A stretch of 64,000 nucleotides of DNA from an uncultured Gammaproteobacteria bacterium (GTDB lineage Bacteria > Patescibacteriota > Patescibacteriia > Patescibacteriales > UBA12465). Below the pieces are notes generated by a model. It worked only from the letters and a program-made list of their open reading frames with translations, searched no databases and had not been told where the DNA came from. Position 1 is the stretch's first letter. Each line of letters opens with the position of its first letter. Both the position numbers and the translations under genes were made by a program. The stretch lies in assembly GCA_964408775.1 (NCBI GenBank), contig CAYPAP010000002.1:65109-129108 (forward strand). The letters are read 5' to 3'. Positions 36,863 to 59,986 of this stretch are shown here, piece by piece.

Positions 36863-37906
36863 ATGGCCAGAATTATTGGACAGGGGTATTCTTTTGACGA
36901 TGTTTTATTAGTCCCTAAATATAATAGAGTAAACTCTCGCAAAGAAGTTTCTTTTAGAACTATGGTTACTAAGAATCATTTTTTAGATATACCTTTCTTA
37001 GTCGCTAATATGGATACCGTTTGCGAAAGCAAAATGGCCATCACTATTGGTCGTATGGGTGGACTGGGAGTTATACATCGCTTCTTAACTATAGAGGATC
37101 AGGTTGAGGAGGTGAAAAAAGTTAAACAAGAAAAATTATTATCTGCTGTTGCTATTGGGGTCAAGGATTATGAAGATCGCGTCAAGGCCCTGAGCTCCGT
37201 TGGAGTTGATATTTTAGTTTTAGATGTAGCTCATGGACACTCTAAGAGAGTTGGAAAAACCTTGGACTATATTAAAGAAAATTATCCTAAAATCGATGTA
37301 ATAGTTGGTAATATTGCTACCAAGGACGCAGCAGAATATTTTATTAGTAAAAAAGCTGATGCGATAAAAGTTGGTATTGGTCCGGGCTCGATGTGTACGA
37401 CTAGGGTTATGGCTGGGGCAGGTGTTCCGCAAATCACTGCCATAATGGATGTTTATGAGGCTAGTCAGGGGAGAGTCCCTGTTTGCGCTGACGGTGGTAT
37501 TAGAGTTTCCGGTGATATTGTCAAGGCTATTGGGGCTGGGGCTGACACTGTCATGCTTGGGTCCTTGTTTTCTGGAACCGACGAAACTCCTGGAGGAATT
37601 ATTAAAAAAGATGGTAAAAAGTATAAAGAATATCGAGGAATGGCTAGTTATTTAGCTACTGTTAAAAAAATGGAATTAGATGGTAGAAAAGTGGAAGAGG
37701 TTGTTCATGTAGAAGGGGAGATCACCAAGGTTAAATATAAAGGATCCGTTATTCCAATTGTTAATAAACTACTAGGAGGCTTGGCTTCAGGCATGACTTA
37801 CGCTGGCGCTGACAATATTGAAAAAATAAAAGGTAAAGCTGATTTCATTTCTATTACTGGAGCTGGAATTAAAGAAAGCATTGCTCACGGCTTACTAAGT
37901 GATTAA
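36863..37906 (+). CDS. IMP dehydrogenase/GMP reductase family enzyme without a CBS subdomain (GMP-reductase-like)
   Basis: TIM-barrel motifs [15 protein letters not shown], the catalytic loop [11 protein letters not shown], and ADGGIR; 347 aa. Confidence 0.85.
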
Positions 37907-37929: not shown

Positions 37930-38595
37930 ATGTTAATTTTGAGTGAAATAAAAAAGCATTCTGGTATTCAGGAGTGTATAAAAAAATCAGAGGATTATTT
38001 AAATTATTTGGGTTATACCGATCATGGTTTTCGTCATGTAAATATGGTGGCTGATAGGGCTAGAAGCTTGGCTAAAAATATGGGACTAAGTGTTAGAGAG
38101 CAAGAGCTTTGTGCTATTTCTGGTTATTGTCATGATATGGGAAATTTTTTACAACGTACAGATCATTGTTATACCGGAGCTATGCTTTTTTCTCAATTTT
38201 TCTTGGAAAAAACTGAAGATCGAGCTGGAGTTTTAGAGATAATGCAGGCTATTGCTAATCATGATGAACATAAATTTGAAATTATTAATAAGGTTGGGGC
38301 TATTTTAATTTTGGCTGATAAGTCTGACGTTCATCGTAGTCGGGTCAAGGACAAGAGTCCTAAAAACATTAAGGAGGATATCCATGATAGAGTAAATTAT
38401 TCGGTTATTGATTCTAGTTTTAAATTAAATAAGCCCAAAAAAGAAATAATTTTAAAATTAAAAGTTGATACTAAAGTTACGACCGTCATGGAATATTTTG
38501 AAATTTTTAATGAGCGCATGATTTTATGTCGCAAGGCAGCTGATTTTTTAGGTTACAATTTTGTTTTAATAATAAATAATTTTAAATTATCTTAA
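37930..38595 (+). CDS. HD-domain phosphohydrolase
   Basis: GFRHV...CHDMGN...NHD motifs; 221 aa. Confidence 0.75.
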   Translation: MLILSEIKKHSGIQECIKKSEDYLNYLGYTDHGFRHVNMVADRARSLAKNMGLSVREQELCAISGYCHDMGNFLQRTDHCYTGAMLFSQFFLEKTEDRAGVLEIMQAIANHDEHKFEIINKVGAILILADKSDVHRSRVKDKSPKNIKEDIHDRVNYSVIDSSFKLNKPKKEIILKLKVDTKVTTVMEYFEIFNERMILCRKAADFLGYNFVLIINNFKLS

Positions 38596-46745: not shown

Positions 46746-47150
46746 ATGGATAATTGTATTTTTTGTAAAATTATTAATAAGGAAGTTGAATCTAATATTG
46801 TTTATGAAGATGCTAATGTCCTGGCCTTTTTGGATAATAATCCAATAAGTTTGGGGCATGTTTTAATTGTACCTAAAAAGCATTTTGTTAATGTTTATGA
46901 TATTGAAGAGGGTAGTTTGAAGGAAATAATAGTGGCAGCTAAAAAAATTGCTTTAACTTATAAAGAGGTTTTTGGGATTACTGACCTTAATCTATTACAT
47001 AATGCCGGCAGTAATGGTCAACAAGCTGTTTTTCATTTTCACCTTCATTTAATTCCGAGGAAAGAGGGTGATGATGTGGATTTTGATAATAAGAAATTTC
47101 CGGAATTGAAGGAGAGATATTCGGAGTTTATTGAGAAGTTGAAAGTTTAG
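46746..47150 (+). CDS. HIT-family nucleotide hydrolase
   Basis: CIFCKII and the histidine triad HFHLHLIP. Confidence 0.9.
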   Translation: MDNCIFCKIINKEVESNIVYEDANVLAFLDNNPISLGHVLIVPKKHFVNVYDIEEGSLKEIIVAAKKIALTYKEVFGITDLNLLHNAGSNGQQAVFHFHLHLIPRKEGDDVDFDNKKFPELKERYSEFIEKLKV

Positions 47151-47597: not shown

Positions 47598-48068
47598 ATG
47601 ATTTATAAAGAAGACGCGAAATACTTGAAGGAAGCAATTCGAAAATCTAGGGAAGCGACAAAAAAGGGAGGTTTCCCCGTAGGGGCTTTGATTGTTAAAA
47701 ATAACAAGGTTATTTCTTTTGGTTTTAGTAACGGCAAGACAAAGAAAGATGCAACTCTTCATGCAGAAATAGATGCTATTAGAAAAGCTTCAAAGAAATT
47801 GAATTCAAGAAATCTGCCAAATACTACACTATATTCTTCTTTGGAGCCATGTTTAATGTGTTTTTCGGCCACCTATTGGGCATATATCCCAAGAATAGTT
47901 TACGCATGTAGTAAGAAAAAGGTTTCAAGAATGCATTATGAAGGTACTCAAAATTTAGATATAATTAATAAAAATAATAATAGAAAAATTGAACTTGTAC
48001 ATATCTCGGAATTAGAGAAAGAGGCTTTTGATGTAATTAAAGATTGGGAAGAATCTTTAAAGAGATGA
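47598..48068 (+). CDS. CDA-fold nucleoside/nucleotide deaminase (TadA / guanine-deaminase-like)
   Basis: HAEIDAI and PCLMC zinc motifs; 156 aa. Confidence 0.85.
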   Translation: MIYKEDAKYLKEAIRKSREATKKGGFPVGALIVKNNKVISFGFSNGKTKKDATLHAEIDAIRKASKKLNSRNLPNTTLYSSLEPCLMCFSATYWAYIPRIVYACSKKKVSRMHYEGTQNLDIINKNNNRKIELVHISELEKEAFDVIKDWEESLKR

Positions 48069-49228: not shown

Positions 49229-50074
49229 ATGATGAACATAATAATATCAAACCCAGAAAAATTTGATAATTTAAAACAAATATTAAAAACTGAAGGATTG
49301 GATAAGGTTCATATTTTATCTGATTTTGACAGAACTCTCACCTATGGCTCAGTTGATGGCGTAAAAACATCTTCAATAATGTCACTACTAAGAGACGGAA
49401 AACACTTAAGTTCTGATTATGTTCAAAAGGCCCATGAATTATTTGATACTTATCACCCGATTGAAGTTGATTCAAATATTCCGCTAGAAGAAAGAAAGGA
49501 CGAGATGCGAGAATGGTGGCAAAAACACAATGACTTATTGATAAGCTCCGGCTTGTCTTTAAGTGATTTAGAAGACATCGCTAAAAATGGTCATTTAAAA
49601 TTCAGAGAAGGGGTTCTGGATTTCTTAGATTTCTTGAAGTCAAAAAATATTCCCTTAATCATATTTTCGGCCAGCGGTTGTGGTGATGCTATTGAATTAT
49701 TTTTTAAAAAATATAATAAAGATTATTCCAATATTTATTATTTAACTAATAAATTTAATTGGGATGAAAACGGGAGGGCTATTTCTACTAAGGGCCCGAT
49801 AATTCACTCCTTGAATAAAGACGAAACAGTTCTTTCGGATATTCCGGAAATTTTTAATATTATCAAAGATAGAAAAAATGTTATTCTCTTGGGTGATAGC
49901 TTGGGCGACGTTGACATGATTAATGGTTTTGATTATGATAATTTAATCAAGATTGGGTTTTTAAATTTTGAGTATAATAAAAATAGGGAAGAGTACCAAA
50001 GTAATTTTGATGTAGTTTTGGAGGGTGATGGAGATTTTAGCTTTATTAATAATATTATTCTTAATTTTAATTAA
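49229..50074 (+). CDS. HAD-superfamily pyrimidine 5'-nucleotidase of the eukaryotic UMPH-1/NT5C3 type
   Basis: Motif I ILSDFDRTLT, motif II IFSASGCGD, motif IV VILLGDSLGDVDM. The spacing and ~280-aa length fit the UMPH-1 family as I recall it. Confidence 0.7.
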   Translation: MMNIIISNPEKFDNLKQILKTEGLDKVHILSDFDRTLTYGSVDGVKTSSIMSLLRDGKHLSSDYVQKAHELFDTYHPIEVDSNIPLEERKDEMREWWQKHNDLLISSGLSLSDLEDIAKNGHLKFREGVLDFLDFLKSKNIPLIIFSASGCGDAIELFFKKYNKDYSNIYYLTNKFNWDENGRAISTKGPIIHSLNKDETVLSDIPEIFNIIKDRKNVILLGDSLGDVDMINGFDYDNLIKIGFLNFEYNKNREEYQSNFDVVLEGDGDFSFINNIILNFN

Positions 50075-51602: not shown

Positions 51603-52235
51603 ATGAAAAAATTTAATCAGGGTCGTGATCGTGATTTTAGCGATAGGGGCCCTAAGAGAGGTTCAGGTGGTTTTGACCGAGGTTCTAGCCGACGACCAGA
51701 GAGAGGCGGCTTTGGGGGAGGGAACCGCAGTGGTTCTTCTGCCATGCATAAAGCAGTCTGTTTTGAATGTGGTAAAGATTGCGAGGTTCCTTTTAGACCG
51801 ACTGGAGGAAAGCCAGTTTTTTGCAGTATTTGCTTTGATAAAAAAGGCGGGTCAGAAAGCAGATCTAGAGGGGGATTTGACGGAAGACCAGAAAGAAGTT
51901 TTGAAAGAGATAACTCTTTCAAACCCAGATTTGATGATAAAAAATTTGGTGATAACAAAAAACCATTTAATGATGGTAAATTAGATGAGGTTATTTCTAA
52001 ATTAGATAAAATTATTAGATTACTTACTCCAGTAATTGACTTAAGAAAAGAAGATCCAGCAATAACAGAATCTAAGGTTGTTAACAAGAAATCTGAAGTA
52101 AGGGATATTAAGAAGGATAAGGTGGTAAAAAAGAGTTCAGCTAAAACCAAGGTTACCCCAAAGAAGAAAAGCAAAAAAGATAGTTTAACTAAAGCAACCC
52201 CTAAAACCAAGGCTAAAGCCAAGACAAAAAAGTAG
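51603..52235 (+). CDS. CxxC-x17-CxxC zinc-ribbon protein with an R/G-rich N-terminus and a Lys-rich C-terminus
   Basis: CFECGKDCEVPFRPTGGKPVFCSICF flanked by RGG-like and KKxK low-complexity regions. Confidence 0.7.
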   Translation: MKKFNQGRDRDFSDRGPKRGSGGFDRGSSRRPERGGFGGGNRSGSSAMHKAVCFECGKDCEVPFRPTGGKPVFCSICFDKKGGSESRSRGGFDGRPERSFERDNSFKPRFDDKKFGDNKKPFNDGKLDEVISKLDKIIRLLTPVIDLRKEDPAITESKVVNKKSEVRDIKKDKVVKKSSAKTKVTPKKKSKKDSLTKATPKTKAKAKTKK

Positions 52236-52266
52236 AGCAAAATTTAATTAAATACTTCCTTTAACA

Positions 52267-52295
52267 AAAGAAGCACCTTTGCGGTGCTTCTTTTA
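52267..52295 (+). terminator. intrinsic terminator
   Basis: GAAGCACC-TTTGC-GGTGCTTC followed by TTTT. Confidence 0.75.
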
Positions 52296-52368
52296 GTTGA
52301 CTTATTTTAAAAATTATATTAAAGTCCTTGATTACATTAACAACATTAAATAAGAAAAGGAGGTGGTT

Positions 52369-53049
52369 ATGAATAAAGTGAGCACTATATTAATTGCTTC
52401 TGGTGGCGGCACGGATGCTAATGCCATAATGGAAGCTTACAAAAAGGGATTTATTCCCGAGATTTTATTGAAAAAGTTAATAAGTACCAAGGAGGGTGCC
52501 GGTTGCCTGGAAAAAGCCAAAAATTTTGGTATTGAAACCACGGTGATTGATAGAAAAGAGCTGGGCTCCCAGGGTTTTAACCGGGAATTATTGCGTCAGA
52601 TACCGTTTTGCGGCTGTGAGTTGGTGTTTCTGGTTGGATGTATAGTAAAAATTGCTCCTATGTTGGGGGTATCGACTTACAATATTCATCCAGCTGATAT
52701 CGAAAAATTTGGAGGAAAGGGAATGTATGGCCTTGCTGTTCATGAAAAAGTTTTGTCTGAAGTCTTGGACTTAATTTCTCGTGGCAAAAAAAGTCCGGAC
52801 GATCGCTTTTTTACTTATCCAACCGTCCATGAAGTAATATCTGAATATGATTCAGGTGCCCCATTGCTTGTGGGAAGTGTAGAAATTCCGAAAGTAATAG
52901 TTACCGGTCTTTTTTATAAGCAGATCAGACTGCAACAAGCGGCCCAGCTTTTACAAAAAGTAGTTCTACCTTATGAGTGGATGATGCTACCGACGGCCGT
53001 CAAAATGGCTGCTAAGAAAATACGAGACAGCACTCCTTTTGGAGGATGA
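52369..53049 (+). CDS. purN: phosphoribosylglycinamide formyltransferase-like (divergent PurN)
   Basis: The ATG at 52369 lies 5 nt after AAGGAGG. ILIASGGGTDANAIM, NIHPA, and HEVISEYDSGAP (compare PurN HFV.DELDGGP). Confidence 0.75.
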   Translation: MNKVSTILIASGGGTDANAIMEAYKKGFIPEILLKKLISTKEGAGCLEKAKNFGIETTVIDRKELGSQGFNRELLRQIPFCGCELVFLVGCIVKIAPMLGVSTYNIHPADIEKFGGKGMYGLAVHEKVLSEVLDLISRGKKSPDDRFFTYPTVHEVISEYDSGAPLLVGSVEIPKVIVTGLFYKQIRLQQAAQLLQKVVLPYEWMMLPTAVKMAAKKIRDSTPFGG

Positions 53050-53080
53050 GCTATGAAGCTCGTAAATTTAGAAAAAAATA

Positions 53081-53105
53081 ATCTCGTCAAACGGCGAGAT
53101 TTTTT
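53081..53105 (+). terminator. terminator after purN
   Basis: ATCTCG-TCAAACGG-CGAGAT followed by TTTTT. Confidence 0.65.
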
Positions 53106-53110
53106 AATTA

Positions 53111-53135
53111 AAAAAGCCACCGAATTTTCGATGGC
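53111..53135 (-). terminator. terminator after the PAICS-like gene
   Basis: On the minus strand, a GCCATCGAA/TTCGGTGGC stem followed by TTTTT. Confidence 0.6.
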
Positions 53136-53170
53136 TGTATTTTTATACCTTTTGAAAAACTTAGACCTTT

Positions 53171-54253
53171 TCAGTCATCTAGTTCTTCAATTTCGTCTTG
53201 TATTTGGGTATACATCGCCGGGTTTTTTTGGCTCAGAATATTAAAAGCAGCTAAGATAGCATTTTCATCTGGCCAGGCAGTCAAAAGAGGCACCTGAAAT
53301 GGCATTCGTAGGCTGGACCAAACATCTTCCGGGAAGTCTTTTAAACTTGCCGGACAGGCTATTACTGGCCATGAAGTCCTGGCTGCCAAAATTGGCCCCA
53401 GACCATTGCTTCTTCCAACCTTGACGATAATCACGCCTCCATCCGGGTAGGCCTGAAGTATTTCTTCGAGCTTTGCCAGAGCCTTGGCGGGAGATTTGTG
53501 AACTGATAATGCCACATCAATCATGTCTATCCCTATTTCTTTTATTTTTTCGGGATAAACGTAATTAACGTACGGAAGAGAGTCTCCAACAGAATACCCC
53601 CAAAAAACCAGAGCTTGATTTGGTATACGGAAGTTGTTAACCATTTGGCTAACTGTTCCGTATTTTTTTTCCACCTCACTCAGGTTTTCTCCTTGTCGGA
53701 AGCTTTCTTTGGAGAGCTCGGTCCAGTTTTTGGTACGCAGTCGCCAGCTGTCATTGTCAATGACATCGGCTACCAGGAGCTCTCCATCGGCCGTGAAACC
53801 GAACTCGATTTTGAAGTCTATTAAGCGCATGTTTTGTTGCGCCCAGGCTGATTCCAAGGTCAGGAAAGTCATCCTCGTTAACTTCTCAATTCTATCAAGA
53901 ATTTGGACGCTAAGGGTGTTTCTTGCCTCTTGCTCATCCGAGACATGTTTATTTAGCTTCAAAACCTCCATAATACTTGGTGCTGTTAAAACCTTCCGAG
54001 AATCAATCGGCGGGTAAAGGACAGCATTCTTTTCCCAGGAAGGAATTTTGGGGTGATAAAGTTCCCACCAATGAGCGTCTTTAGGAATAATCAGAGGATC
54101 CTCTTCTCCTTTTTTCGGATCTAGACCCTTTACCAGTTTTTCCCCAAAAATTTCCAGCTCTCCTCCTGTAGTCTTAAGGAAAAGCTCTATTTTCAGGGAA
54201 TGAAAACGGTCAGGATTATTGCTGTCAGTGCTCATGTTAGGGAAGCGCTTCAA
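53171..54253 (-). CDS. purC-purE: PAICS-like bifunctional gene, downstream part: C-terminal two-thirds of SAICAR synthetase fused to a class-II-like PurE (AIR carboxylase)
   Basis: LIDFKIEFG...[13 protein letters not shown] (SAICAR synthetase), then a PurE fold from about 53620 downward: [29 protein letters not shown]. The ORF begins at a TTG immediately after an in-frame TAG, in the same frame as the upstream fragment. Confidence 0.8.
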   Translation of the reverse strand: [360 protein letters not shown]

Positions 54254-54559
54254 CTAGCTTCCCACGGCATAGCGCCGAGCGATAACCTCCAGTGGTATCA
54301 TCGTACATCGTGGAGCCAGAAATTCTGTTTCACCCAGTTGTTTTTCAAAAGCAACGGGAATTCCGGCTTTTTTCAGCAGTTCAAAAACGCGACAAGTTGT
54401 ATTTGTGGCGTACTTTGCTTTAGCCTCGAACTCCTGAGTTTTGCTGGGGTCATCAAAAGCAGTGATTTTGCTTTTGCTCTCGATGACAACCATTTTCGGA
54501 TTGTCTTCATGGGACCAAATTCTTTTGGTCTTACCTTCTGCGATGAGTCGTTGTCTCAT
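54254..54559 (-). CDS. purC: PAICS-like gene, upstream part: N-terminal SAICAR synthetase fragment ending in an in-frame TAG
   Basis: MRQRLIAEGKTKRIW...KITAFDD...IPVAFEKQLGETEFLAPRCTMIPLEVIARRYAVGS*. The ATG at 54559 is preferred over the track start at 54622, which overlaps purM. TAG is at 54254-54256. Confidence 0.75.
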   Translation of the reverse strand: MRQRLIAEGKTKRIWSHEDNPKMVVIESKSKITAFDDPSKTQEFEAKAKYATNTTCRVFELLKKAGIPVAFEKQLGETEFLAPRCTMIPLEVIARRYAVGS

Positions 54560-54596
54560 TGTCTGTCCTTTCTTTTTAGTTAAGGGATATGAAAAA

Positions 54597-55778
54597 TTAA
54601 GCAATAAACGATCCATGTTCACTATGGATTATCACGCTATTTTTATCAGAGGTGTTTTCCAAACAACATCCGAAAAAATAGTTTTCAATTTTGCATTTTC
54701 GCGAGGTTTCGTTTATGGCCTCGCTGAAAAACAAGTGATCCTCTCCAATGACATCTATGCCGATTCCGCAATTGAAGGTTTCGTACATATTTCTCCAGCT
54801 TTCTCCGCTTTTCTTCTGAATAAGCTGAAAGATTTCCGGGGGAGTGGGCATGTTTTTGTTATAAATTATGCCTCGGCCGACGTTTCTGATCTTGGTTGCT
54901 CCGCCACCAGTATTCATGGTTATACCATGAAGCATGTGGTAGGCGTTTCTTTTTTTTAATTCCAGGGCCAATGTTCTAATAATAATAGCCCATTGTCTAG
55001 TGGGAGACAAAATATTTTTGCTTACTTCCACCCCTAAGGATGGGTTTAAGCTTATATCAATATCTCCTTTGTAAAAATCAGAATCATCACGACGAAGATC
55101 CGGATATTTTTCATTGTAAGAGGAGCTCATCAGAGCACTTCTAGCTAAGGTTAGCCCATTGGACATCAGACCGGAGTTATCTTCTTCTTCCCAAGCAGCT
55201 TTTCCAGCGCTAGAGAATCCAAAAATTAAATCTCCTGGCTGAACATTACCTGCAATAATGTTTTCCTTCTTTTCTCGGGCGGTAACCGTTATATCAAAAA
55301 CGGCTGATTTTACTTGATCTTTCAGATCGGCAGTTTCTCCCCCCAAAAAATGAAGATGGAAGCCATGTTCCTGGTAGAGCTTTTTTAGCTCGGAAAAACG
55401 CAGGGCAATTCTTTCCATTATCAATTTTTTCAATTTTGTTGGTAGGTTAACATTCAGAACATCGGTTATTAACCAATGCCCGAAGACAAATCCACTGGCA
55501 GCAATATCGCCGGTGTTCATGGAAAGGGCATCATCCACCATTCCGTCAAAGATGCTGGCATCTCCGGTTTCCCGGTAATGCAATAATCTTTGGATAAATT
55601 TACTCCCGTCACCATCTTGGTGTTGGGTCATAGCCAGATTAGGGTTATAGGGGTCTGTTATGATATTAACAAAGGCATTGGGATACTCATTGTCAATAAT
55701 CTCTTTAAACACCCTTTTAACTCCTTCTTTTTGGGCATCAACACCCAGTTGTTGGTACAAACTGCTTTCTTTGCTCAT
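54597..55778 (-). CDS. purM: phosphoribosylformylglycinamidine cyclo-ligase (AIR synthetase), divergent
   Basis: LGVDAQKEGV, DGDGSK (compare DGVGTK), FLGGETA, NTGGGATK, MYETFNCGIGI. Confidence 0.8.
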   Translation of the reverse strand: MSKESSLYQQLGVDAQKEGVKRVFKEIIDNEYPNAFVNIITDPYNPNLAMTQHQDGDGSKFIQRLLHYRETGDASIFDGMVDDALSMNTGDIAASGFVFGHWLITDVLNVNLPTKLKKLIMERIALRFSELKKLYQEHGFHLHFLGGETADLKDQVKSAVFDITVTAREKKENIIAGNVQPGDLIFGFSSAGKAAWEEEDNSGLMSNGLTLARSALMSSSYNEKYPDLRRDDSDFYKGDIDISLNPSLGVEVSKNILSPTRQWAIIIRTLALELKKRNAYHMLHGITMNTGGGATKIRNVGRGIIYNKNMPTPPEIFQLIQKKSGESWRNMYETFNCGIGIDVIGEDHLFFSEAINETSRKCKIENYFFGCCLENTSDKNSVIIHSEHGSFIA

Positions 55779-55910
55779 GGTTTTTGGTTTTTTGGTGATT
55801 ATATCATGGAATTAGTGATTTTCATTCATTATCATTAAGTTTTTAAAGACCTAAAGAACAATAAAAGATAGTATTGTATTACAGCTAATTTGTCAATTAA
55901 ATTTTGTGAT

Positions 55911-55938
55911 TTGATTTTTCCAAAAAATAAGCTATAAT
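55911..55938 (+). promoter_or_regulatory. promoter-like TTGATT-16-TATAAT upstream of leuS
   Basis: TTGATT at 55911-55916, TATAAT at 55933-55938, ATG at 55967. Confidence 0.35.
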
Positions 55939-55966
55939 AGGTAGGTAAATATTAACTAAATCAAAT

Positions 55967-58318
55967 ATGGCTAATAAAAATAAATATTATTGTCTAGATA
56001 TGTTCCCATATCCATCTGGATCTGGTCTGCATGTTGGGCACGTTGAGGGCTACACCGCCTCCGATATTTTTAGTCGCTATAAAAGGATGAGGGGATTTGA
56101 TGTTATTCATCCTATGGGTTGGGATTCTTTTGGTTTACCAGCCGAAAATTACGCCATAAAAACTGGTGTTCATCCCTCCAAAACTGTCGACACAGCTATT
56201 GCTGCCTTTATCTCTCAGATGAAAAATTTAGGCCTAGAATACGACTGGGATAGGGAACTTAAGACCTCCGATCCAGAATACTACAAATGGACTCAATGGT
56301 TATTTTTGCTTTTATATAAAAATGGCCTAGCCTACAAGAAAAAAGCCAAGGTTAATTGGTGCGAAAAATGCTCCACCGTTTTAGCTAACGAACAAGCCGA
56401 GACTGGTTTTTGTGAGCGTTGCGGAGATCAAGTGGTGCAAAAAGATTTAGAACAATGGTTTTTTAAAATTGTTGATTTTATAGAAGATCAGGAATTCGAA
56501 GGACGAAAGATAAAAGGTCTTTTGTCGGGTTTAGATGATGTTGATTGGCCCCAGACCACCAAGACTGCTCAAATAAATTGGATAGGCAAAAGCGTTGGTG
56601 CTGAAGTAAATTTCACTGTTAGCGATGGTAAAGATAATTATAATTTAAATGTTTTTACTACCAGACCAGACACCCTATACGGCTGCACCTATATGGCCAT
56701 TAACCCCGAACATGAATTAATTCAAAAATTTTCTGACAGTATAAGAAATTTATCAGAAGTTTCCAAATATATCGACGCGTCTAAGAAAAAAACTGAAATG
56801 GAAAAAATGATAGCTACCAAAGAAAAAACTGGCGTCGAGCTAGAGGGAGTAACCGCTATTAACCCCTTAAACAAAAAAGAAATAAAAATTTTTGTAGCTG
56901 ATTATGTTTTATCTGGTTATGGTTCCGGAGCTATTATGGCTGTTCCGGCTCACGATGAAAGAGATCATGCTTTTGCTAAAAAATATAATTTAGAAATTAC
57001 GGAAGTTATCAGTGGCGGTAATATTTCACAAGAAGCTTACACCGGAGAAGGCACCTTAATAAATTCCGATATTATTAATGGCCTATCAGTAAAAGAAGCT
57101 AAGAAAAAAATTATTAAATATTTAGAAGATAATAAGATTGGTCAAGCTTCAATTAATTATCGTTTGCGTGATTGGTTAATATCTCGTCAAAGATATTGGG
57201 GAGCGCCAATTCCTATTATCTATTGTGATAAATGTGGGGAAGTGCCAGTACCGGAAAAGGATTTACCAGTAATTTTACCAGAAGATGTTGACTTCTTGCC
57301 GACTGGAGAGTCACCTTTAAAATATTCTAAAACTTTTCATGAGGTTAATTGCCCGCTTTGTGGAGCCAAGGCTCGTCGCGAAAACGACACTATGGACACC
57401 TTTGTTTGCTCTTCTTGGTATTATTTTAGGTATTTAGACCCCAAAAATGACCAAGTTTTTGCCGAAAAAGATCAAATTTCACAATTTATGCCCGTAGATT
57501 TATACATCGGCGGAGCTGATCATAGTGTTATGCATCTGCTTTATGCTCGTTTTATTACTAAAGTTTTGCAAAAACATGGTTACTGTGAAGTTAATGAGCC
57601 TTTCAAAAAACTACGTCATCAGGGCATGATTTTAGCTGAAGATGGTAGTAAAATGAGTAAATCTAAGGGAAGCGTAGTTAACCCTAATGATATTATAGCC
57701 GAATATGGAGCTGACACCCTAAAATTATATGAAATGTTTATGGGACCCCTGGAAGATCCTAAGCCTTGGAATACTAAAAATATTTCAGGAATTAAAAGAT
57801 TTTTAGAGAAAACGATTTCGCTATCTAATAAAATTGGGGAAGATACTTCTATTGATTACAAAGAATTAATTTTAGAATTGAATAAAACTATTAAAAAAGT
57901 AGAGGAGGATATTGAAGAATTAAAATTTAATACCGCCATTTCTCAATTAATGATATTGGTAAATACTTTTTCTCAATATGAAAAAATATCTCTAAATCAT
58001 TTTTCTACGCTATTAATAATTATGTCACCCTTTGCCCCTTTTACAGCTCAAGAGTTATGGGAAAAAATAGGGAAGAGCGGAAATGTCTCTCAAGAAACAT
58101 GGCCCGCTTATGATAAAAATATTGTAGAAGCAGAAAAAGTTTCTTTAGCTGTTCAAATTAATGGTAAGACCAGGGGGGCCATAGAAGTTGATCCCAACAG
58201 CGAAGAATCCGAGGTTGTTTCTTTAATAGAAAAAGATGAAAATCTTAAAAAATATTTAATGGGGGATTACAAAAAAATTATTTATGTAAAAAATAGGATT
58301 ATTAATTTCATTATTTAA
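55967..58318 (+). CDS. leuS: leucyl-tRNA synthetase
   Basis: HVGH (HIGH motif), KMSKS, and CP1 editing-domain motifs; 783 aa. Confidence 0.96.
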   Translation: MANKNKYYCLDMFPYPSGSGLHVGHVEGYTASDIFSRYKRMRGFDVIHPMGWDSFGLPAENYAIKTGVHPSKTVDTAIAAFISQMKNLGLEYDWDRELKTSDPEYYKWTQWLFLLLYKNGLAYKKKAKVNWCEKCSTVLANEQAETGFCERCGDQVVQKDLEQWFFKIVDFIEDQEFEGRKIKGLLSGLDDVDWPQTTKTAQINWIGKSVGAEVNFTVSDGKDNYNLNVFTTRPDTLYGCTYMAINPEHELIQKFSDSIRNLSEVSKYIDASKKKTEMEKMIATKEKTGVELEGVTAINPLNKKEIKIFVADYVLSGYGSGAIMAVPAHDERDHAFAKKYNLEITEVISGGNISQEAYTGEGTLINSDIINGLSVKEAKKKIIKYLEDNKIGQASINYRLRDWLISRQRYWGAPIPIIYCDKCGEVPVPEKDLPVILPEDVDFLPTGESPLKYSKTFHEVNCPLCGAKARRENDTMDTFVCSSWYYFRYLDPKNDQVFAEKDQISQFMPVDLYIGGADHSVMHLLYARFITKVLQKHGYCEVNEPFKKLRHQGMILAEDGSKMSKSKGSVVNPNDIIAEYGADTLKLYEMFMGPLEDPKPWNTKNISGIKRFLEKTISLSNKIGEDTSIDYKELILELNKTIKKVEEDIEELKFNTAISQLMILVNTFSQYEKISLNHFSTLLIIMSPFAPFTAQELWEKIGKSGNVSQETWPAYDKNIVEAEKVSLAVQINGKTRGAIEVDPNSEESEVVSLIEKDENLKKYLMGDYKKIIYVKNRIINFII

Positions 58319-58453: not shown

Positions 58454-59986
58454 ATGAAAGAAAAAATTAACACTTTTTTACAGGGAGTTAACACTCTATC
58501 AATAGTTTGCTATCAGTGGGGAGACACTGGCAAGGGCAAGTTTGTCGATAGATTCGCTGAATGGGCTGATATCATTGCTCGAGGAACTGGCGGTGATAAT
58601 GCCGGTCACACTATCTATTATGATAGCAGGGCCCATGTTTTTCATCTAATTCCTTCGGGAATTTTGTATGATAAATATGGGAAGATTAATGTTATTGGTT
58701 CTGGTACTGTCATCAATCCTCGGACCCTTATTCTGGAAATAAAGCGACTTTTGAAAGATGGTATGACCGTCAACAACCTGAAAATCGCTTTAAATGCTAA
58801 GCTGATTTTACCGGTTCATATCCTCTTGGATCGCCTAAAAGAGGCCGAAAAGACGGACAAAATTGGAACCACTGGGAAGGGAATTACCGACGCTTATCTT
58901 GATCACTATGGTAGAATTGGTCTCTGCATCAATGATCTTTTGAATCCGGATTTGTTTGCCAAAAAGCTTAAGAAAAATCTGGAAGAAAAAAGAAGATTGC
59001 TCAAGACCTACGACATTGAGTTGATTAAGGAAATTTTGCACAGCGATGATTTGGAAAATGGAATTTACTTTCACCCTGAAAAAATCATCAACGAGGATGC
59101 TATTGTGCAAAAATATTTTGGGTATGGGCAAGTTATGCAAAGATTCATCACTGACACGGACGCCTTGTTGAGAAAGAGTGTGGGTAAGAAAAAGATTCTA
59201 TTAGAAGGAGCTCAGGGGATGTTATTATCCATTGATTATGGTAGCTACCCCTATGTTACTTCTTCTGACTCTTCTGGTGTTGGCTTAGCCAAGGGTGTTG
59301 GCCTCAAAGAATCCGATATTGATCTTCAATTGGGGATCATTAAAGGATTCTACATGACCAGAGTCGGATGTGGTCCTTTTCCAACAGAATTAGGTGGAGA
59401 ACTCTCTGCTAAATTCTGTAATGGAAAACATGAACCAGGAATAAGGGTGTTGGAAGTAGAAGAGGTCGCCCTCGGTTTAGAGAGCGGTCGACATGATGAT
59501 CTTTTTCTGGGAAAATTTATTCGCGCCCAGGGATCTGAATATGGGGCCACTACTGGCAGACCTCGCCGAACCGGTTGGCTAGATTTACCGCTCCTTCGCT
59601 ATGCCATGCAAGCGTCAGGTCAAGTAAATCTGATATTAACGAAGCTTGATATTTTGAACAGCCTAAATCAGATTGATCCATATTTAGGTATCAAGGTTTG
59701 TTACGCTCATGTATACAAAGGAGAAAAACCATATCACTACGGTGATAAGGTTATTAAAAAAGATGACGTCTTAACGGTGGCGATTCCCAATGCTGAATTT
59801 CTAAATCAATGCGAACCGATCTACGACTCCTTTAGTCTTTGGAAGGAGGATATCTCACAAATCAAAGATTTGCGAAAAATGCCTCCGAATCTCCGGCTAA
59901 TTCTCCATTATCTAGAGAGGGAGACCAAAGCAAAGATCAGAATTTTGTCCGTAGGGCCTGAAGCTGAGCGAACATTGTTTCTGTAG
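58454..59986 (+). CDS. purA: adenylosuccinate synthetase (expanded, 510 aa)
   Basis: QWGDTGKGKFVD, GGDNAGHT, GTTGKGI, GATTGRPRR, TKLD. Confidence 0.9.
   Translation: MKEKINTFLQGVNTLSIVCYQWGDTGKGKFVDRFAEWADIIARGTGGDNAGHTIYYDSRAHVFHLIPSGILYDKYGKINVIGSGTVINPRTLILEIKRLLKDGMTVNNLKIALNAKLILPVHILLDRLKEAEKTDKIGTTGKGITDAYLDHYGRIGLCINDLLNPDLFAKKLKKNLEEKRRLLKTYDIELIKEILHSDDLENGIYFHPEKIINEDAIVQKYFGYGQVMQRFITDTDALLRKSVGKKKILLEGAQGMLLSIDYGSYPYVTSSDSSGVGLAKGVGLKESDIDLQLGIIKGFYMTRVGCGPFPTELGGELSAKFCNGKHEPGIRVLEVEEVALGLESGRHDDLFLGKFIRAQGSEYGATTGRPRRTGWLDLPLLRYAMQASGQVNLILTKLDILNSLNQIDPYLGIKVCYAHVYKGEKPYHYGDKVIKKDDVLTVAIPNAEFLNQCEPIYDSFSLWKEDISQIKDLRKMPPNLRLILHYLERETKAKIRILSVGPEAERTLFL

Follow-up and report, generated by a model that had tools for sequence, protein, structure and literature searches.

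The purCE gene of the window, by which we mean the whole 64-kb stretch of DNA analysed here, is most likely a young pseudogene that arose by recent inactivation within a known bacterial family of fused PurC-PurE proteins. The minus-strand frame 54559..53171 consists of 462 codons, carries a single in-frame TAG at codon 102 and ends with a TGA. A SAICAR synthetase (PurC) domain is encoded first and a PurE-type domain second, both in the same frame (Table 1). Besides the TAG, the frame contains no frameshifts and no further stops, and its homology to animal PAICS runs on across the TAG and through both domains. Because of the TAG, the window copy does not provide one uninterrupted ORF for a single polypeptide. 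Against the NCBIfam models, the protein family scores below both cut-offs (purC, 102 versus 190 bits; purE, 63 versus 150 bits). We propose that a Tyr codon (TAY) within the motif VGS-Y-LKR mutated to TAG. Translation would then end after 101 residues, and the 360 codons downstream have no obvious start of their own. Gene calling on a contig from the Logan collection (L108) gives the identical 101-amino-acid product.

Table 1 Features of purCE and its neighbours, in window coordinates.
Feature	Position	Strand	Evidence or remark
purN-like formyltransferase, convergent with purCE	52363..53049	+	Pfam Formyl_trans_N E 2e-8; NCBIfam PurN E 8e-12, below cut-off
Two convergent terminator hairpins, sharing TTTTTTAATTAAAAAA (53100-53115)	53080..53136	purN-like + (53080-53101); purCE - (53136-53115)	Terminator scan, junction alignment
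purCE TGA stop	53171..53173	-	
purCE codons 316-462, PurE-like domain (AIR carboxylase fold)	53174..53614	-	Pfam AIRC positions 21-143, E 5e-16
PurE-domain motif DVWSSLRMP	53300-53326	-	
PurE-domain motif GRSNGLGP	53393-53416	-	
PurE-domain motif SVHK	53495-53506	-	
PurE-domain motif WGYSVGD	53582-53602	-	
purCE codons 103-315, rest of PurC domain and linker	53615..54253	-	Pfam SAICAR_synt positions 127-230, E 4e-16
10-residue motif of the PurC domain/linker stretch	53738-53767	-	Common to PAICS and bacterial fused proteins
In-frame TAG, codon 102, within conserved VGS[Y/F]LKR	54254..54256	-	Homolog alignment; three assemblies
purCE codons 1-101, N-terminal PurC part	54257..54559	-	Pfam SAICAR_synt positions 2-95, E 5e-21; NCBIfam purC E 4e-17
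EGKTK motif of the PurC domain	54524-54538	-	
purM (AIR synthetase of the long, Bacteroidetes-like type), immediately 5' of purCE in one operon	54597..55778	-	PDB 3mdo E 7e-53 (full length), 3kiz E 6e-50; NCBIfam purM E 5e-17, below cut-off
Promoter-like sites of purM	55798-55896		Promoter scan
purA (adenylosuccinate synthetase), syntenic with relatives, TAG stop	58454..59986	+	Pfam Adenylsucc_synt E 3e-120

The initial annotation of this DNA had read the frame as a SAICAR synthetase with a C-terminal AIR carboxylase fold in the domain order of animal PAICS. Both statements hold: the Pfam families SAICAR_synt and AIRC are found in that order, and the closest solved structures are the PAICS enzymes of silkworm (E 2e-53) and human (E 4e-51), the top PDB matches by sequence. 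The peptides quoted in its support are all present in the window, although one of the human PAICS strings given for comparison (13 residues) deviates slightly from the actual human sequence. For this check, the human sequence used has 100% identity with PDB 2h31. The further claim that such a fusion is unusual for a bacterium falls, because relatives of the fused protein make up more than 1200 protein clusters and occur in at least 575 GTDB species-level genomes, and the fusion is already annotated in related bacteria, an outcome that the initial annotation had itself named as refuting its reading. The automatic names are 'AIR carboxylase family protein' at NCBI and 'phosphoribosylaminoimidazole carboxylase / phosphoribosylaminoimidazole-succinocarboxamide synthase' at JGI. 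Full-length members comprise about 440 amino acids and share 50-57% identity with the window copy, which clusters among the fused proteins of Patescibacteria, together with L001 and P0091. Their hosts are mostly Patescibacteria of many lineages, accompanied by some Alphaproteobacteria (including Xanthobacteraceae/Pseudolabrys), Verrucomicrobia and Planctomycetes (including Tepidisphaerales).

The interrupted codon lies at a position that is sense in homologs, with Tyr in four fused proteins (P0027, P0091, P0002, P0005) and Phe in a fifth (P0020) as well as in human and silkworm PAICS. The stop is therefore premature, and TAG is a regular terminator in this DNA, as expected of a pseudogene. Two other marks of pseudogenes, a raised substitution rate and additional lesions, were not observed. 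In a relative-rate test against the closely related copy L001, unique changes numbered 8 versus 4 in the PurC part and 7 versus 5 in the PurE part, neither difference being significant, and long-term relaxed selection was accordingly dropped as a candidate. As the window copy does not evolve faster, its lesion is either young or tolerated. Both this rate and the retained catalytic residues (GKTK, SxHK with its Ser, His and Lys, GRSNGL and the phosphate-ribose loop Asp) count against inactivation. The sole other change is a Gly-to-Tyr substitution in W-x-G-S-x-x-D, found in the window copy alone (G-Y-S-V-G-D, with Ser and Asp retained), by which the phosphate/ribose-binding loop G-S-x-S-D that characterizes class II enzymes is no longer intact. 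Among 117 full-length homologs, 97% have this Gly, and in the other two samples it is invariant; it corresponds to Gly273 in the human AIRc active-site model (PMC9376930). Loss of function, and a recent date for the lesion, are the most likely reading.

The four closest lineages carry four different purCE lesions. Next to the TAG of the window copy, L001 and L002 show a CAA-to-TAA change at the PurC/PurE boundary, L003 has lost the entire PurE domain through an in-frame deletion, and L106 and L107 lack purCE, with purM running straight into the purCE terminator. Among the 120 best matches in the family, on the other hand, 117 have full length and no interruption. The gene is thus dispensable in close relatives, and the window lineage is one of a small set of related Patescibacteria that are losing purCE by several routes; in this lineage the gene is probably dying. 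This pattern agrees with reports that most Patescibacteria genomes lack the de novo pathway: 93% of them are without de novo nucleotide synthesis, and the genes for it are scattered among the genomes of this group (preprint 10.64898/2026.06.21.733656). Four lineages with four lesions of one gene appear to show Patescibacteria in the course of losing de novo purine synthesis.

A split enzyme that still works is the first alternative to be weighed. Translation would stop at the TAG and restart either at the TTG immediately 3' of it or at an ATG seven codons on, and the resulting pieces of 101 and about 360 amino acids would assemble into an active PurC with PurE attached. The adjacent TTG makes re-initiation and two polypeptides conceivable, gene callers predict both pieces, almost all catalytic residues are kept at an unraised substitution rate, and purM, the purN-like gene and purA nearby are undamaged. 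The break, however, falls inside the conserved substrate-binding motif VGS-Y-LKR and not at a domain border, neither candidate restart is preceded by a clear ribosome-binding site, and all 117 full-length homologs are continuous at the TAG site. As related lineages have lost parts of the gene or all of it outright, decay is favoured over a new arrangement, and a functional split enzyme appears unlikely.

It is likewise improbable that the gene is intact in the living population and yields a normal bifunctional PurC-PurE enzyme, with the TAG reflecting a minor allele or an error introduced by sequencing or consensus calling. The TAG is one base away from a Tyr codon, and the clean remainder of the ORF, the conserved active-site residues and the unaccelerated substitution rate would all suit such an origin. 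Yet three assemblies, for which different assemblers were used and one of which derives from a named single run, have the identical TAG: an ENA MEGAHIT contig (L004, 7065 nt) and the Logan contig L108 (1542 nt, run SRR10872584) each match the window at 100% identity across the site. The TAG is genuine and not an assembler artefact, as the three assemblies agree, though their read sets may overlap. Exact-pattern and protein-guided scans of the JGI metagenome contigs for closer relatives or a TAY allele returned nothing above 55% identity; no contig with a TAY variant was found in that collection, the search for one giving no match whatever. The dispensability of purCE within the clade, as seen in the relatives, also argues against an intact gene in the population.

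Decoding of the TAG as an amino acid, through reassignment, a suppressor tRNA or programmed read-through to the full 462-residue protein, is highly improbable, even though the reading stays open before and after the codon and homology is continuous across it. The initial annotation had read the gene through the TAG in this way. Among 52 long ORFs of the window, TAA is the stop codon of 35, TGA of 9 and TAG of 8, at positions that fit ortholog lengths; purA, located 4 kb from purCE, terminates with TAG at a length equal to that of its ortholog. Neither a tRNA with a CUA anticodon nor any other split gene or gene requiring read-through was found in the window. A shared recoding signal is absent as well, because the in-frame stop of the relative L001 is TAA and not TAG. 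Together, stop-codon use, ortholog lengths and the lack of a suppressor tRNA in the window led us to discard TAG recoding.

Syntenic counterparts of genes around purCE occur in relatives. The purN-like gene shares 77% identity with its syntenic counterpart in L001, and purA is 58% identical to L001 purA over its full length. At the junction between the purN-like gene and purCE, alignment with the window places purL in both L001 and L003, and in L106 and L107, which lack purCE, purL lies between the purN-like gene and purM. In the window, purL is not at this syntenic place. The clean junction at AATTAAAAAA was first read as a purL deletion and as proof of pathway erosion; that reading was downgraded, and absence from the syntenic site is what the alignment shows. 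A 123-kb contig (L104) with a GC content of 0.330, compared with 0.335 in the window, and a tetranucleotide profile correlated with that of the window at r 0.987 carries a purL that is 69% identical to L001 purL. The promoter, leader and terminator of purL are conserved between the L001-type and L104 contexts, so that purL acts as a movable cassette. The region from 52 to 56 kb has a GC content of 0.40 versus 0.33, and transfer was considered as a possible cause. The purine cluster is also GC-richer in relatives, and conserved enzyme genes are often GC-richer.

The PurE domain of the window copy displays class II-type motifs and was correctly recognized as such in the initial annotation. In the PDB, it ranks closest to PAICS (E 4e-15 and 2e-12), followed by the class II PurE of Treponema denticola (3rg8, E 2e-6) and by class I enzymes (E 4e-4 or weaker). 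A Lys follows the catalytic His (S-x-H-K) in the window, as in 60 of 61 fused proteins, whereas class I enzymes have SAHR. The G-R-S-N-x-L loop reads GRSNGLGP, identical to PAICS, compared with GRSNALSG in T. denticola. The SVHK variant is not special to this gene and occurs in 18 of 61 fused proteins of other genomes; Val is common at that site, and SVHK was also dropped as a sign of decay. The reported absence of purK from the window is borne out: no PurK homolog was detected in its 64 kb (tblastn with E. coli PurK, best E 0.71), in Pfam scans of the window ORFs from 36 to 64 kb, or in the 13-21 kb of sequence surrounding four relatives. Judging by homology and by the residues that are conserved, the PurE-like C-terminal domain of intact members would use CO2 directly to convert AIR into CAIR, without a need for PurK, and the N-terminal PurC domain would join CAIR and aspartate with ATP to form SAICAR. 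According to literature cited in PMC9376930, the class II PurE of T. denticola works without PurK.

The likeness to PAICS extends to the predicted structure. An AlphaFold model of the intact homolog P0005 (pLDDT 87) has human PAICS (6yb8_A) as its best Foldseek match, with E 2e-32 over 455 columns and a TM-score of 0.60-0.62, and free-standing PurC structures superpose well on it (TM about 0.9 relative to the target). A specific link to the animal enzyme, however, is not supported. In neighbour-joining trees of both domains, the bacterial fused proteins form one group with PAICS outside. For the PAICS PurE domain, 249 of 300 bootstraps give a grouping with free-standing class II PurE and 48 of 300 one with the bacterial fused domain; the trees comprise 144-272 columns (PurE, 144) with two animal sequences, which is a weak basis. 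The PAICS PurE domain also scores 112 bits against free-standing class II PurE and at most 78 bits against bacterial fused domains. The PAICS PurC domain reaches 150-160 bits with non-Patescibacteria fused proteins and 112-127 bits with free-standing PurC. The grouping of PAICS PurE with the free-standing class II enzymes leans towards independent fusions in bacteria and in animals. Most other eukaryotes have PurK-PurE and a separate PurC.

One ancient fusion as the common source of the bacterial proteins and animal PAICS, with the animal enzyme gained from bacteria or the reverse, is a possibility that we regard as doubtful. The same domain order, the shared motifs and the PAICS PurC scores with fused proteins outside Patescibacteria speak for it, and the neighbour-joining PurE tree, with its few columns and two animal sequences, speaks against it. 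That the window gene is a rare PAICS of animal derivation, taken up by a bacterium in a recent horizontal transfer, has only a very remote chance: the animal enzymes are the top solved-structure matches, have an equal domain order and share the 10-residue motif and GRSNGLGP, but identity per domain is only about 25-40%, the fusion occurs in hundreds of bacterial species that form one group without PAICS, and PAICS PurE resembles the free-standing class II enzymes more closely than it does any fused domain from bacteria.

The window gene itself matters little, being a damaged member of a family already known to databases. Taken as a whole, the family shows that PurC-PurE fusions which resemble PAICS and have class II-type motifs are widely distributed among bacteria, and it may bear on the origin of animal PAICS and on how common PurK-independent AIR carboxylation is. 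In the literature searched, the fusion is treated as eukaryotic, and we found no paper there on PAICS in connection with Patescibacteria and none that describes PurC-PurE fusions of bacteria; this large bacterial family thus seems not to have been discussed in it.

Compared with other Patescibacteria fusions (e.g. P0005 and P0020), the window copy has the same two domains in the same order and the common motifs GKTK, VGS[YF]LKR, SxHK, an 8-residue PurE motif and the 10-residue motif, in place of which last free-standing PurC proteins have DE[IF]SPD..RLW. It differs from them in the TAG at codon 102 and the Tyr for the Gly of W-x-G-S-x-x-D, and has a variable loop lengthened by about 20 residues. 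Animal PAICS (human 2H31/6YB8; Bombyx mori 4JA0) shares the PurC-then-PurE order, the catalytic Ser-x-His-Lys and the GRSNGLGP loop, but differs through additional PurC-domain insertions of about 25-60 residues and in the relative orientation of the domains, which is different in the P0005 model (rmsd 7-8 A). The class II PurE of T. denticola (3RG8) and its free-standing relatives have the same Lys after the catalytic His and likewise carry GRSN in the loop where class I enzymes read GGAAHLPG or GLAAHLPG. The T. denticola enzyme, however, is a free-standing protein of about 160 amino acids that the window PurE domain matches only weakly, and it falls with PAICS in the tree and not with the bacterial fused domain, which forms its own lineage and is not nested in the PAICS/T. 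denticola group. The standard bacterial system of PurC and class I PurE with PurK (E. coli b2476, b0523, b0522) employs the same two folds for the same pathway steps, but from separate genes, with the class I motifs SAHRTP and GGAAHLPG and a requirement for PurK.

The disrupted minus-strand purCE frame of the window belongs to a large bacterial PurC-PurE family that databases already annotate, and carries class II-type PurE motifs. Residues 1-101, preceding an in-frame TAG, match positions 2-95 of the Pfam SAICAR_synt profile (E 5e-21), while the 360 residues past the TAG match SAICAR_synt positions 127-230 (E 4e-16) and AIRC positions 21-143 (E 5e-16), so that both domains assigned to this frame in the initial annotation are present. 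The likeness to PAICS, the animal two-domain enzyme, claimed there also stands: among solved structures, the best sequence matches are silkworm (E 2e-53) and human PAICS (E 4e-51), followed by free-standing PurC (~1e-22) and PurE (~1e-5). The peptide strings quoted all occur in the window, and their comparison with human PAICS is correct save for one residue misquoted for the human protein, whose reference sequence we checked against PDB 2h31 (100% identity over 425 residues). An AlphaFold model of P0005, an intact homolog from Patescibacteria (pLDDT 87, pTM 0.88), has human PAICS as its best full-length match (Foldseek E 2e-32, 455 columns, TM 0.60-0.62, rmsd 7.7 Å), ahead of free-standing PurC (TM ~0.9 relative to the target) and then PurE (~0.7).

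For the PurE domain of the window taken alone, PAICS ranks first (4e-15, 2e-12); T. denticola class II PurE comes next (2e-6), ahead of class I enzymes (4e-4 or weaker). The active-site model of human AIRc comprises Gly273-Ser-Thr-Ser-Asp277, Ser301-Ala-His303-Lys304 and Gly330-Arg-Ser-Asn-Gly-Leu335 (PMC9376930). Of these, the window keeps Ser, His and Lys of SxHK, the entire GRSNGL loop, Ser274 and Asp277, but has Tyr in place of Gly273. The equivalent glycine occurs without exception in 26 diverse homologs and in 97% of 117 full-length ones, and every W-x-G-S-x-x-D motif found among GTDB fused proteins has it. SVHK was rejected as a defect, since the residue preceding the His varies across the family (G, V, I or A). 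PurK was not found in the window, as initially noted, nor near the purCE gene in four relatives. The sequence gives good support to a predicted class II-type PurE chemistry.

The gene comes second in a purM-purCE operon. A purN-like gene runs convergently towards the operon, and on the far side of purM are leuS and purA. The nearest relatives, also Patescibacteria, keep this gene order at 73-76% identity in PurCE, each with a different lesion. In L001/L002 (GCA_028696995.1), CAA has become TAA precisely at the PurC/PurE boundary; in L003, an in-frame deletion has removed the whole PurE domain (...LPN/IEELDK, then stop); in L106/L107, purCE is absent and the PurM C-terminus passes directly into the purCE terminator. 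Either a stop codon that was already there went with the L003 deletion, or this position breaks easily.

Including the window TAG, there are four lesions in four related lineages, against 117 intact and full-length proteins among the best 120 of more than 1200 family matches. Mainly for this reason, we regard the window gene as decaying rather than oddly expressed, and it is probably a young pseudogene. Nearly all catalytic residues are kept and no raised substitution rate relative to L001 was found, so that either the nonsense mutation is young or the split is tolerated. A TTG lies immediately 3' of the TAG and gene predictors call two ORFs across purCE; set against the recurrent lesions, a working split gene is nonetheless unlikely. 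Slightly less likely is that the TAG is an error or minor allele. A TAY codon becomes TAG by a single base change, and in homologs, both near and remote, the residue here is Tyr or Phe within the conserved motif VGS[Y/F]LKR. Two contigs, L004 (ENA MEGAHIT, 7065 nt) and L108 (Logan, run SRR10872584, 1542 nt), agree with the window at 100% identity over the TAG, and the stop is therefore genuine at assembly level. Translation through the TAG, as the frame was initially read, is hardly credible, as the window bears no sign of recoding: TAG closes 8 of its 52 long non-overlapping ORFs (TAA 35, TGA 9), purA, 4 kb from purCE, terminates with TAG at its ortholog's length, and ARAGORN detects only tRNA-Leu(CAA) and tRNA-Gln(CTG) in the window. 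A decaying purCE fits the reported scarcity of de novo nucleotide synthesis, which 93% of Patescibacteria genomes lack, such genes being scattered among them (preprint 10.64898/2026.06.21.733656).

Features of the purine region and of related loci (window coordinates unless a locus is named)
Feature	Location	Strand	Remarks
purCE frame	54559 (ATG) to 53173..53171 (TGA)	minus	462 sense codons plus one in-frame TAG
In-frame TAG	54256..54254	minus	codon 102 of purCE
Promoter-like sites of purM-purCE operon	55798-55896		
purM	54597-55778	minus	NCBIfam purM 62 vs cut-off 236 bits
purCE terminator	53136-53115	minus	
Convergent terminator hairpins	53080-53136		one 16-nt T/A tract common to both
Zinc-finger ORF	51603-52235	plus	CxxC-x17-CxxC; long low-complexity tails, Arg/Gly/Ser- and Lys-rich
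UMPH-1 pyrimidine 5'-nucleotidase ORF	49229-50074	plus	Pfam E 2e-63
Deaminase	47598-48068		other nucleotide-handling gene near UMPH-1 ORF
HIT protein	46746-47150		near UMPH-1 ORF
HD-domain protein	37930-38595		
IMPDH/GMP-reductase-like gene	36863-37906		
L003 deletion start	L003:1880-1902 vs L001:6950-6965		same codon as L001 TAA, after ...LPN; junction AAT/ATT
Region upstream of purL	L001:11335-11500, L104:7818-8000, L106:827-1022		outside window; conserved between contexts
Fused PurC-PurE, Pseudolabrys (Alphaproteobacteria)	L062:2956-4269		
Fused PurC-PurE, Terrimicrobiaceae (Verrucomicrobia)	L059:2920-4287		
PurC-only loci	L036, L040-L047, L049, L051, L053, L056, L074, L077		

The window PurM has no Pfam match at E 0.01 but resembles two 'putative' long PurM proteins of known structure, 3mdo (E 7e-53, full length) and 3kiz (6e-50); its L001 ortholog is 54 residues longer and, at 54% identity, the least similar among the syntenic genes. 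GC content reaches 0.39-0.40 at 52000-56000, compared to ~0.33 for the window, and the purine cluster is GC-richer in the relatives too (L001 0.37, L003 0.41, L106 0.42). L106 has the identical hairpin AGCCACCGAATTTTCGATGGCT, there terminating purM instead of purCE. The zinc-finger ORF is conserved at 80% identity beside the purN-like gene in L001, and a 207-aa antisense ORF fully overlapping it is probably spurious. The UMPH-1 family, with one member in the window, is mostly eukaryotic; that member belongs to a set of nucleotide-handling genes together with the deaminase, the HIT protein, the IMPDH/GMP-reductase-like gene and the HD-domain protein.

The purL gene separates purE from the purN-like gene in L001 and L003, and the purN-like gene from purM in L106/L107. 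It is absent from the syntenic place and from the entire 64-kb window, where the junction consists of one copy of the T/A tract found flanking the relatives' purL. We do not claim its loss from the genome, because a purL with 69% identity to the L001 gene occurs in unrelated context on L104 (contig Ga0376279_0000048, 123 kb), whose GC matches that of the window and whose tetranucleotide similarity to it equals that among the window's own thirds, and because the L001 and L104 contexts share a conserved purL promoter, leader and terminator. purL thus seems to move as a cassette with promoter and terminator, bounded by TTTTTTAATT. Its conserved upstream region contains a TTGACT box and the inverted repeat ATTACTTTTTGGTAAT ~50 nt before the start codon, and could act as a regulatory operator or leader travelling with the gene. 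PurL of this clade is 56-57% identical to Desulfobacterota/Syntrophaceae PurL versus 59-60% to other Patescibacteria PurL; transfer of purine genes may have occurred.

The initial view that the fusion is unusual for bacteria does not hold: the fusion is widespread and has annotations in related bacteria, an outcome that the initial annotation itself named as refuting it. The >1200 matches were obtained from 5.8 billion protein clusters and, with each GTDB species represented by one genome, at least 575 genomes were found to contain relatives. The best full-length relatives have ~440 aa, 50-57% identity and both Pfam domains. Where NCBI names them, they are 'AIR carboxylase family protein' or SAICAR synthase of Patescibacteria/Parcubacteria, vague names that arise because the family scores below the NCBIfam purC and purE cut-offs; JGI uses a PAICS-type double name. 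Fused full-length genes occur in numerous Patescibacteria lineages, in bins labelled Parcubacteria/Paceibacterota, Moranii-, Magasanik-, Falkow-, Peregrini-, Peri-, Staskawicz-, Taylor- and Saccharibacteria, and at 36-41% identity in Xanthobacteraceae/Pseudolabrys, Verrucomicrobia and Tepidisphaerales. Two genes from outside the Patescibacteria were checked, each being one ORF with both domains in surroundings devoid of purine genes; their neighbours are chemoreceptor and GGDEF genes, or Tex and GH1 glycosidase. In many Patescibacteria this PAICS-like subfamily is represented by a PurC-only protein that matches fused-protein residues 1-293, and 3 of 15 such loci (L047, L049, L051) have a separate PurE-like ORF ~1.3 kb upstream. 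Gain, splitting or loss of the fusion has thus happened repeatedly.

For comparison with the animal enzyme, we built per-domain neighbour-joining trees (Kimura-corrected distances, 200-300 bootstraps) from human and silkworm PAICS, 29-33 bacterial fused or PurC-only proteins and four free-standing PurC, with three class I and 11 free-standing class II PurE on the PurE side. All bacterial fused proteins form one group without PAICS (300/300 in the PurE tree). PAICS joins free-standing PurC in the PurC tree (184/200), and its PurE domain joins free-standing class II PurE in 249/300 replicates versus the bacterial fused domain in 48/300. In pairwise comparison, the PAICS PurE domain reaches 112 bits with T. 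denticola PurE and no more than 78 bits with any of the bacterial fused domains. The PAICS PurC domain reaches 150-160 bits with fused proteins from outside the Patescibacteria and 112-127 bits with free-standing PurC, and has a 10-residue motif in common with the bacterial fused proteins. A recent transfer between animals and bacteria, in either direction, is ruled out. The position of PAICS outside the bacterial fused group, with its PurE domain beside class II PurE, favours two independent fusions, animal and bacterial, as far as neighbour-joining on short alignments with two animal sequences can indicate. purCE is PAICS-like in architecture, is probably not specifically related to PAICS, and is not rare.
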